This document shows, in pieces, positions 29,251-37,280 of a stretch of DNA of 64,000 bases. The translations under genes and the position numbers were made by a program. The notes below the pieces were generated by a model, which saw nothing but the letters and a program-made list of their open reading frames with translations, was not told where the DNA came from and did no database searches. This DNA comes from Octopus vulgaris (taxonomy: Eukaryota), in assembly GCA_951406725.2 (NCBI GenBank), contig OX597818.1, forward strand, positions 12,772,001 through 12,836,000. Reading direction: 5' to 3'. Position 1 is the first letter of the stretch, and the number at the start of each line of letters is the position of its first letter.

Positions 29251-29253
<3 letters not shown>

Positions 29254-29450
29254 GGTCCCGGGTTGATTCGGGGTTAACCACAGTAAATAAGGTACTCAAT
29301 ACATAGCAGAGTAAAATTAATTTATTATATAGAAGGAGCTTCTACAGGACTAGAACTGTTTCATTCAAGAGAAATCTTCAGGAGCTTCCTGAAGATTTCT
29401 CTTGAATGAAACAGTTCTAGTCCTGTAGAAGCTCCTTCTATATAATAAAT
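29251..29450 (-). mobile_element. ~200-bp palindromic hammerhead element in (TA)n, copy 1
   Basis: Near-perfect palindrome 29320-29450 plus a unique tail 29251-29319. It is the inverted homolog of 36633-36831 and is flanked by (TA)n on both sides. Confidence 0.92.
29381..29435 (+). ncRNA. Type I hammerhead ribozyme motif (mirror core on the minus strand has a weaker stem I)
   Basis: Stem I ggagcttc/gaagctcc (8 bp); CTGAAGA 29389-95; stem II ttc-tctt-gaa with a U-U closing pair; GAAA 29408-11; stem III acag/ctgt; GTA 29425-27. Confidence 0.75.
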
Positions 29451-36219: not shown

Positions 36220-36515
36220 GGGGGCATGATCTAGTGGTGAGACTGTTGGACTCACGATCGCAAGGATTTGGTTTCAATTCCTAGATCAGGTGGTGCATTG
36301 TGTCCGTGAGTAAAACACTTCATTTCATGTTTCTCTGCGATTACTTCGATACCTGACGCGTGGCACGCAGTGCACCTATTGAGACAACGTCGATTTCATG
36401 GAGAGAGCAAGTTAATGTATGGCATGAACATTTAAACAACTGTAAACTATTCACTTGTTCAGGTCGTCCGGCAAAATGGTGAACGCTCATACGTCGCCTT
36501 CAACGGGAGAATCCG
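36220..36515 (+). mobile_element. tRNA-derived SINE (family B)
   Basis: A-box-like tgatctagtggtgag and B-box-like ggtttcaattcc, then tgtgtccgtgagtaaaacact. The body is homologous to ~48895-49065, and the head to 2887-2970 and 48595-48700. Confidence 0.75.
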
Positions 36516-36632
36516 TTTATGTGCACACACACACTCACACACACATACATATGTGCATATATATTCATAAATATTTATGCATATTTATATATGTATATAT
36601 TATATATATATATACATATATATATATATTAT

Positions 36633-36831
36633 TTTATTATATAGAAGGAGCTTCTACAGGACTAGAACTGTTTCATTCAAAAGAAATCATCAGGAAGCTT
36701 CCTGATGATTTCTTTTGAATGAAACAGTTCTAGTCCTGTAGAAGCTCCTTCTATATAATAAATTATTTTACTCTGCTATGTATTGAGTACCTTATTTACT
36801 GTGGTTAACCCCGACTCAACCTGGGACCTAC
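36633..36831 (+). mobile_element. ~200-bp palindromic hammerhead element in (TA)n, copy 2
   Basis: Perfect 130-bp palindrome 36633-36762 centred on aagctt, then a tail to ...gggacctac. TA-rich flanks on both sides. Confidence 0.92.
36696..36746 (+). ncRNA. Type I hammerhead ribozyme motif (identical mirror copy on the minus strand, 36649-36699)
   Basis: Stem I agcttc/gaagct; CTGATGA 36702-08; stem II ttc-tttt-gaa; GAAA 36721-24; stem III acag/ctgt; GTA 36738-40. Confidence 0.75.
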
Positions 36832-36962
36832 ATACACATATATATATATAATATATATATAAATATATGTATGTATAAATATGTATATATATATATGTAT
36901 GTATGTATATATATATATCTATCTATCTGTACCTATATCTATTTACTTATCAATCTATCTAT

Positions 36963-37112: not shown

Positions 37113-37280
37113 AAATATATATATGTATATATATATATTGGCCTGCTCGCTTAGCCAGCGGGGTGGCGTCATTCGAAGGCTAAAACAATGCGAACGCATT
37201 GTGACCAGCGATGTGTATCAACATCTGCTGGTCTGGTCGGTCACGTGATCACGTGATATATATACATATATATATATATA

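Follow-up and report, generated by a model that had tools for sequence, protein, structure and literature searches.

Head-to-head hammerhead palindromes in the octopus genome: insertion footprints of a putative Hydra-clade PLE that favour twin priming

Introduction

The EN+ Penelope-like elements (PLEs) of the Hydra clade are described as possessing the protein motifs DKT, RWK, CxCX5C and CxxC/CxH, as lacking a CCHH motif and as residing in (TA)n (Craig et al. 2021, PMC8557442). For the Poseidon PLE of Anolis, in vitro work has established that both target strands are nicked and extended, that reverse transcription starts at two internal sites bounding the tail and that the strands show no preference for either site (Frangieh et al. 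2024, PMC11167929); the accessible text of that paper draws no link between the two start sites and inverted insertions. Penelope elements of Adineta carry inverted pLTRs with palindromes at the junctions, an arrangement read as the product of antisense self-priming (Arkhipova et al. 2013, PMC3846280), and the minimal hammerheads of PLEs occur as opposite-strand pairs 100-700 bp apart (Cervera and De la Pena 2014, PMC4209133). The origin of the inverted ends and of the tail, the RNA strand that is copied and the role of the hammerhead are stated as open in the available text of these accounts (PMC8557442, PMC11167929, PMC3846280). A proposal of twin priming for PLEs was not found in the literature searched, and subscription papers and supplements may hold one. 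Here, we describe a 199-bp palindromic unit of Octopus vulgaris that compares closely with these systems, together with its relatives in the genome.

Results

The 199-bp unit and its two copies

The window (the whole stretch of DNA analysed, 64,000 nucleotides) carries two 199-bp units that are 95% identical (Table 1), each built of a palindrome with 65-nt arms and a 69-nt tail on a single side, with TA-rich flanks. The sequence-only reading of this DNA had noticed that the two copies differ at N7 of the hammerhead and in loop II, and that the differences are mirrored within each copy; this was confirmed, with CTGAAGA and the loop TCTT in both arms of copy 1, and CTGATGA and TTTT in both arms of copy 2. 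The centres were also as that reading gave them, GGAGCTTCC in copy 1 and GGAAGCTTCC in copy 2, one base apart. In the 2.8 Gb (227 contigs) of genome searched, the perfect centre occurs 645 times and the one-base-shorter centre of the copy 1 type 290 times. Copy 2 is flanked by two GC-richer, SINE-like stretches among microsatellites (window positions 36220-36520 and 37139-37255).

Table 1. Positions in the window of the two units, their parts and the adjoining DNA.
Feature	Position	Strand	Remark
Copy 2	36633..36831	+	Inverted arm, direct arm and tail; shortest head-to-head insertion of the assigned Hydra-clade PLE
Palindrome of copy 2	36633..36762		Perfect, 65+65 nt; tail follows on one side
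Tail-less inverted arm	36633..36699	-	Outer end is start site 2 (putative second cDNA)
Full hammerhead in the tail-less inverted arm	36649..36699	-
Self-complementary AGCT	36696..36699	.	Common to both arms; the A is the putative RNA 5' end
Type I hammerhead motif	36696..36746	+	Read by hand; same position in two sister families
Stem I and CTGATGA	36702..36708 (CTGATGA)	+	Stem I of 6 bp; N7 at 36706
GAAA	36721..36724	+
Stem II and loop II	36713..36716 (loop II)	+	U-U, then stem II of 3 bp; stem III of 4 bp
Predicted cut	36740/36741	+
Tail	36763..36831	+	69 nt, from start site 2 to start site 1
Copy 1	29251..29449	-	Built alike; belongs to the other subfamily, with A at N7 and TCTT in loop II; centre shorter by one base
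Left flank of copy 2	36570..36632	.	TA-rich target
Right flank of copy 2	36832..36900	.	TA-rich target

Identity of the element

A 26-nt pattern from the tail gave 4,848 exact matches genome-wide, and the sample referred to below consists of the first 100 of these listed, all on contig C1 and not selected for arm sequence. About a quarter of the copies (25 of the first 92) extend 5' into a long element rather than a short palindrome, and these led to RT and GIY-YIG-type frames and then to complete ORFs of 713 aa. The hammerhead and tail lie directly ahead of this ORF and again about 5 kb behind it; in the full-length elements the sequence ahead of the ORF is exactly that of the unit, the tail continuing into the 5' UTR and the ATG following 51 nt past the tail end. 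The ORFs have YRDD and VY..YIG motifs, together with DKT, CxCX5C, CxxC and CxH, no CCHH being visible by eye, and carry RWR in the family of the window unit and RWK in two sister families. A Pfam scan of three ORF fragments gave nothing above the cut-off, and 1,116 homologues of the ORF were found at E<=1e-20, some with PF00078, PF01541 and PF26215. Both the coding capacity, a single ORF with RT plus a GIY-YIG nuclease at the C terminus, and the layout, a pLTR tandem with an inverted 5'-truncated copy (79 of the 100 sampled) and a one-sided tail, are those of an EN+ PLE, and the insertions lie in (TA)n, as in the Hydra clade. Because the ORF shows DKT, CxCX5C, CxxC and CxH as given for that clade (PMC8557442), and with the target in agreement, we assign the 199-bp unit to the 5' end (hammerhead and tail) of a Hydra-clade PLE, which represents a family new to a clade already known and has a layout already described.

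Two other identities were considered and rejected. A MITE or palindromic DNA element does not fit a tail on one side only, nor centres and arm lengths that vary. A non-LTR retrozyme consists of head-to-tail tandem units, each with a hammerhead, and no ORF (bioRxiv 10.64898/2026.07.22.740005), whereas the present ones are single units, arranged head to head, and derive from an ORF-bearing element.

The repeat of the element is about 5.4 kb, including a 3' region of 3 kb that is rich in TA and TG; four loci read individually carry about 2.3-3 kb of such low-complexity 3' sequence, so that spread of the element also spreads microsatellite-like DNA containing its own target. Nested within long copies at two loci are other retroelements: a second PLE-type ORF, which has DKG and a CxxC linker, and a LINE of the endonuclease-RT type. 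At three further places, identical truncated units recur in tandem, flanks included, at distances of 221 bp, 388 bp and 2.5 kb, representing either local duplication or an assembly repeat.

A sister Hydra-type family (711 aa, 46% amino-acid identity, 3,674 hammerhead arms) has the same build of site-2 arm, tail, site 1 and TA flanks, and its centre, GCTAGC, 12 nt before the core, is likewise self-complementary. A third family has a longer hammerhead with compensatory changes in stem I and the same GUA cut. A strict hammerhead pattern missed the motifs of the sister families, which were found by eye. The genome also contains at least three more families of Hydra type (about 711, 950 and 770 aa), and for some of them no hammerhead was visible upstream of the ORF.

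The hammerhead motif and its predicted cut

The motif contains CUGANGA, GAAA, UH and stems I-III, and when constrained to this structure positions 36696-36746 fold at -7.3 kcal/mol, compared with a minimum of -7.6 kcal/mol; the core motif arises in 31 of 100,000 shuffles. A hairpin downstream competes with stem I, and the G10.1-C11.1 pair is absent, the base of stem II being U-U here and A-A in the sister family. Rfam gave no match at gathering score in the window and no hammerhead family at E<=10, the sub-threshold matches at the locus being only of the hairpin type. We therefore describe the motif as a hammerhead-like variant with predicted self-cleavage, and do not claim canonical type I membership. 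Recurrent variants in the sample are confined to N7, to three sites in loop II and to one in loop III; the 11 core sites have none, with six scattered minor letters in 873. The earlier suggestion that variation falls at ribozyme-neutral positions rather than in the core was thus borne out.

A search for junctions at the predicted cut gave 49 matches, against 20 at a control position 6 nt upstream, but 26 of the 49 form a single class that can be put down to the strands of stem I matching each other over 6 nt; as this leaves 23 against 20, we claim no enrichment at the cut site. At two individual loci the joint does fall at the predicted cut. In L142 (G000:C18:49340733-49340885), sense 28S rRNA is joined at the predicted cut in both arms, over 86 nt in the tail-less arm and 42 nt in the tail arm, its source being a tandem array on C20 with a period of about 18 kb. 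In L224/L225 (G000:C15:44664090-44664242), a 125-nt unit that extends from the predicted cut across the tail and on into the 5' UTR is repeated in tandem and joined at the sense-strand cut, and looks as if it came from rolling-circle copying of a small circle. The joints of these two loci suggest that cleavage and ligation may take place in vivo.

One-armed losses of a single G beside the cut site (13 tail-less arms and 5 tail arms in the sample) were considered as traces left by passage across the cut; no long copy shows them, short-read contigs do not list them at 1-2%, and they were set aside as probable long-read errors, although this is not proven. Separately, in two public runs whose RNA status is guessed (X8 and X11), A>G differences appear at 12 and 7 places within one locus (L250:2960-3500), reaching 9-19% of depth at three hammerhead adenosines, the cut-site A among them. 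They are nearly absent from DNA runs and have no matching T>C excess, a pattern that looks like A-to-I editing of the sense strand if the guess as to these runs is correct.

Concordance between the arms

The window copies represent two common subfamilies, and the differences between them are subfamily haplotypes rather than copy-specific mutations. Both haplotypes were also found in long non-palindromic copies, and what had appeared as co-variation is therefore subfamily identity carried into both arms. N7 is discordant between the arms in 5 of the 645 perfect-centre palindromes genome-wide, where random pairing would give about half (the first 50 listed comprise 22 T, 27 A and 1 discordant), and, among the 290 with the shorter centre, in 1 of the 100 listed first. 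The same haplotype was found in both arms of 49 of the 52 copies that could be scored at all seven diagnostic sites, compared with a mean of 12.9 and a maximum of 23 in 10,000 permutations, and site-wise agreement at the diagnostic sites was 400/404. In a tree of 13 long-arm copies, seven form their own cherry and the rest lie in a near-identical cluster; four of the 13 long inverted arms are nearer to another copy's arm than to their own, inside a cluster differing by <=5 nt. The arms therefore group by copy, with no left/right split, as the sequence-only reading had expected of palindromes that are regenerated or homogenized. Of the five N7-discordant palindromes, four were readable, the fifth having a truncated arm, and in L309 the two arms come from two subfamilies, differing at three diagnostic letters.

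The other half of that expectation, homogenization by arm-to-arm conversion, is contradicted by the rare substitutions. The 3,507 paired positions that are non-diagnostic and covered in both arms contain 31 one-armed substitutions and a single mirrored one, from which it follows that the mirror is made at insertion and then decays, and is not produced by later conversion. A palindromic master family, MITE-like, with arms kept alike by gene conversion, would account for the existence of one perfect centre and one shorter centre in such large numbers. It is nevertheless scarcely credible, because it is at odds not only with this 31 to 1 ratio and with the near absence of mirrored private mutations from the sample, which is young, but also with centres and arm lengths that vary from copy to copy, with the presence of the same haplotypes in non-palindromic ORF-bearing copies and with the lack of a terminal inverted repeat covering the tail.

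Arm lengths and start sites

The inverted arms of the sample range from short to kilobases long, yet their outer ends fall at exactly one base, site 2, in 47 of 79 and within 6 nt of it in 69. The 5' reach of the two arms was compared in 66 copies, leaving out 13 with both arms over 200 nt: the tail-less arm is longer in 23, the tail arm in 27, and the two are equal in 16. In nine copies the excess of the tail-less arm amounts to between 10 nt and kilobases. Copy 1 of the window is itself among those whose tail-less arm reaches further 5', its centre belonging to that arm, which is the opposite of what fold-back of a tail-bearing cDNA would lead one to expect. A pattern targeted at tail arms stopping inside the tail found 27 copies; every one of these pairs such an arm with a complete hammerhead arm that ends at site 2, and the two arms do not overlap. 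Site-2 arms also stand alone between TA runs at four loci. Among 30 site-2 ends, 22 have a tail-arm partner within 1.5 kb, and no short site-2/site-2 palindrome was present. A search for tails followed by non-A bases returned point variants only, with no read-through.

These measurements bear directly on fold-back, in which the tail-bearing cDNA would snap back at AGCT and copy itself into the second arm, with later central deletions giving the asymmetry. Such a mechanism accords with AGCT being the top joint, with arms that are nearly always of one haplotype and with some centres that fit a 3-nt hairpin loop (the GGAGCTTCC class; locus L035), but a tail-less arm made in this way could never reach further 5', as it does in 23 copies, so that fold-back is not the main cause. 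Whole-arm deletions would be needed for the 27 non-overlapping copies, for the nine in which the tail-less arm is the longer by 10 nt to kilobases, and for the solo site-2 arms, L142 and L309, and copying would have no reason to stop at one fixed site within its own template. We consider fold-back unlikely, and largely refuted by the non-overlapping class. Rebuilding of the palindrome during mobilization, which the sequence-only reading had proposed, is consistent with the grouping of arms by copy, but its fold-back form is not consistent with arms that do not overlap. In the same way, AGCT remains the commonest joint without one arm being copied from the other, and the centres do vary with each insertion, as that reading had supposed, but with arms reaching 5' equally often they do not speak for independent fold-back events.

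Short-read contigs of public runs also show centres joined asymmetrically, arms joined into the tail and centres short of one base, and these are therefore not assembly errors. That the palindromes or their variable centres should be artefacts of long-read assembly is the least credible of the explanations weighed here: the one-armed single-G losses of palindromic copies would agree with it, being unlisted in these contigs, but the contigs show the joints and also both TA-joined ends, and the fixed site 2 is sequence-specific.

The centre and the RNA 5' end

The inner ends of the arms pile up on AGCT: 26 of 100 tail arms and 19 of 79 inverted arms end at its A, and 45 and 36, respectively, within 4 nt of it. 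Where arms are joined after ATAT, the base before this A is G in 42 cases, C in 10 and A in five (n=57), and the G excess spans all subfamilies seen in 30 loci read; in long copies this base is T, C or A. The matched control pattern, placed 25 nt downstream, gave 0 matches. Among 55 distinct loci listed, the nine with G make up the largest class, and only two or three extend further 5' along the template. In L1, an extra G arises from copying of the cap. Given the piling of ends, the extra G and a TATAAA 29 nt upstream, we read the A of AGCT as a capped RNA end, and a capped transcription start at this first base of stem I is likely, although an RT adding an untemplated C would give the same extra G. 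One full-length element (L171) has the AGCT palindrome directly ahead of its ORF. The A is not the sole RNA 5' end, since many full-length copies run 45-290 nt further 5'. The extra-G test in the sister family gave one match, with base A, the ends there being mostly without G, and only 10 of the 27 tail-joined arms have G before AGCT. At six loci, the centres contain short templated repeats or stutter, which are typical of end-joining of two 3' ends.

The sense of these ends is relevant to antisense self-priming, in which an antisense RNA would serve as template and prime itself, as published for head-to-head PLEs with the same layout and with palindromes at the inverted junction (PMC3846280). 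We regard this as very unlikely here, because it is at the 5' end in the sense direction that the extra G is found, the 28S rRNA captured at one locus (L142) has sense orientation and continues the sense strand, the tandem unit of L224 is joined at the sense-strand cut site and the templates used in vitro were sense (PMC11167929).

Discussion

We consider it very probable that the unit is the hammerhead-and-tail end of a Hydra-clade PLE, set in a TA repeat and facing, head to head, a shorter inverted copy of itself, and that this arrangement likely arose in one insertion event in which both strands were nicked and each primed a cDNA on the same sense RNA. The element protein would nick both target strands, and each nicked strand would prime its own cDNA, the first starting at site 1, the tail end, and the second at site 2, 69 nt further 5'. 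For starts on the copies of these sites near the transcript 5' end, the two cDNAs would extend for 136 and 67 nt before running off a likely capped RNA end, the A of AGCT, their 3' ends would anneal via AGCT or another short match, and repair would fill in the remainder. The mirror would be rebuilt at every insertion, and the arms would match since both would be copied separately from the same RNA; variation at neutral sites would then reflect selection on the hammerhead of the source elements, and not on the palindrome. Twin priming is proposed because of the one fixed site-2 end and the pairing of site-2 arms with tail arms, joined with the in vitro data for Poseidon (PMC11167929), and whereas the layout, the identity of the element, the agreement of the arms and the range of junctions are observed, it is from the insertions that we infer double priming, the dimer and the repair route, as well as the cap. 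The pairing of one long and one short arm and the 99% concordance fit one RNA held at both sites, and two sibling RNAs fit too. Central deletions after insertion could be a source of some of the asymmetry, and a short snap-back may well be part of the joining of the two cDNA ends. The footprints favour sense-templated twin priming over antisense self-priming (PMC3846280), fold-back and conversion.

A broader scheme is possible, although we stop a little short of calling it probable: that PLEs integrate by obligatory twin priming, with a protein dimer, one RNA and two fixed starts, of which the inverted pLTR and tail would be the footprint; that the transcript starts at the first hammerhead base, giving 'strong-stop' palindromes by the thousand; and that the hammerhead cuts in vivo, its 5'-OH product being ligated to 28S rRNA or to itself and then copied. 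Twin priming from two nicked strands would explain the long-known inverted ends of PLEs. With its thousands of insertion footprints, a young family of this kind allows the models to be told apart, and it points to precise sites for in vitro testing, namely the RNA 5' end, the two start sites and the cut site. Mirrored neutral variants in such palindromes are no evidence of conversion or of selection on a hairpin.

Comparison with known systems

In the twin priming of L1, a further cDNA is started inside the same RNA from the other nicked strand, and the outcome is a 5' inversion with a microhomology joint. The position of this second start varies, and each cDNA represents a separate portion of the RNA. 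The mechanism proposed for the octopus family shares with it the second nicked strand, the second internal cDNA on the same RNA and the microhomology joint, but differs in that the second site is fixed and both cDNAs would cover the same stretch, leading to an inverted duplication.

The minimal hammerheads of PLEs (PMC4209133) resemble the unit in having a type I motif in the pLTR, a palindromic loop III and opposite-strand pairs, whereas the octopus motif has U-U in place of G10.1-C11.1 and a stem III of 4 bp, and its pairs abut directly. The Adineta Penelope elements (PMC3846280) share the head-to-head inverted pLTR, the tail on one arm and the junction palindrome, and their pLTR has TATA and Inr-like motifs, as does the unit; in contrast to the published reading, the junction spectrum here argues for two sense-templated cDNAs. 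As in Poseidon (PMC11167929), two internal RT starts, here read from insertions, bound the tail, the target is AT-rich, the hammerhead lies just 5' of the start sites and a dimer is predicted; Poseidon belongs to another clade, and the octopus insertions differ from its in vitro products in pairing one site-1 arm with one site-2 arm, so that the lack of a strand preference in vitro counts against the reading proposed here.

The closest likeness is to the Hydra clade (PMC8557442), with which the octopus family shares DKT, an RW[K/R]-type motif, the CxCX5C linker, CxxC and CxH around the last E and N, the (TA)n target, the pLTR hammerhead, the inverted 5'-truncated copy and the one-sided tail. 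It departs from the published description of the clade in a tail of 69 nt rather than 30-40, in RWR for RWK and in a repeat of about 5.4 kb with a 3-kb TA/TG-rich 3' region, and from the octopus element Hydra-1_Obim (PMC8557442 supplement) in its hammerhead; it differs further from that description in its mass class of minimal palindromes, of which the two window copies are examples.
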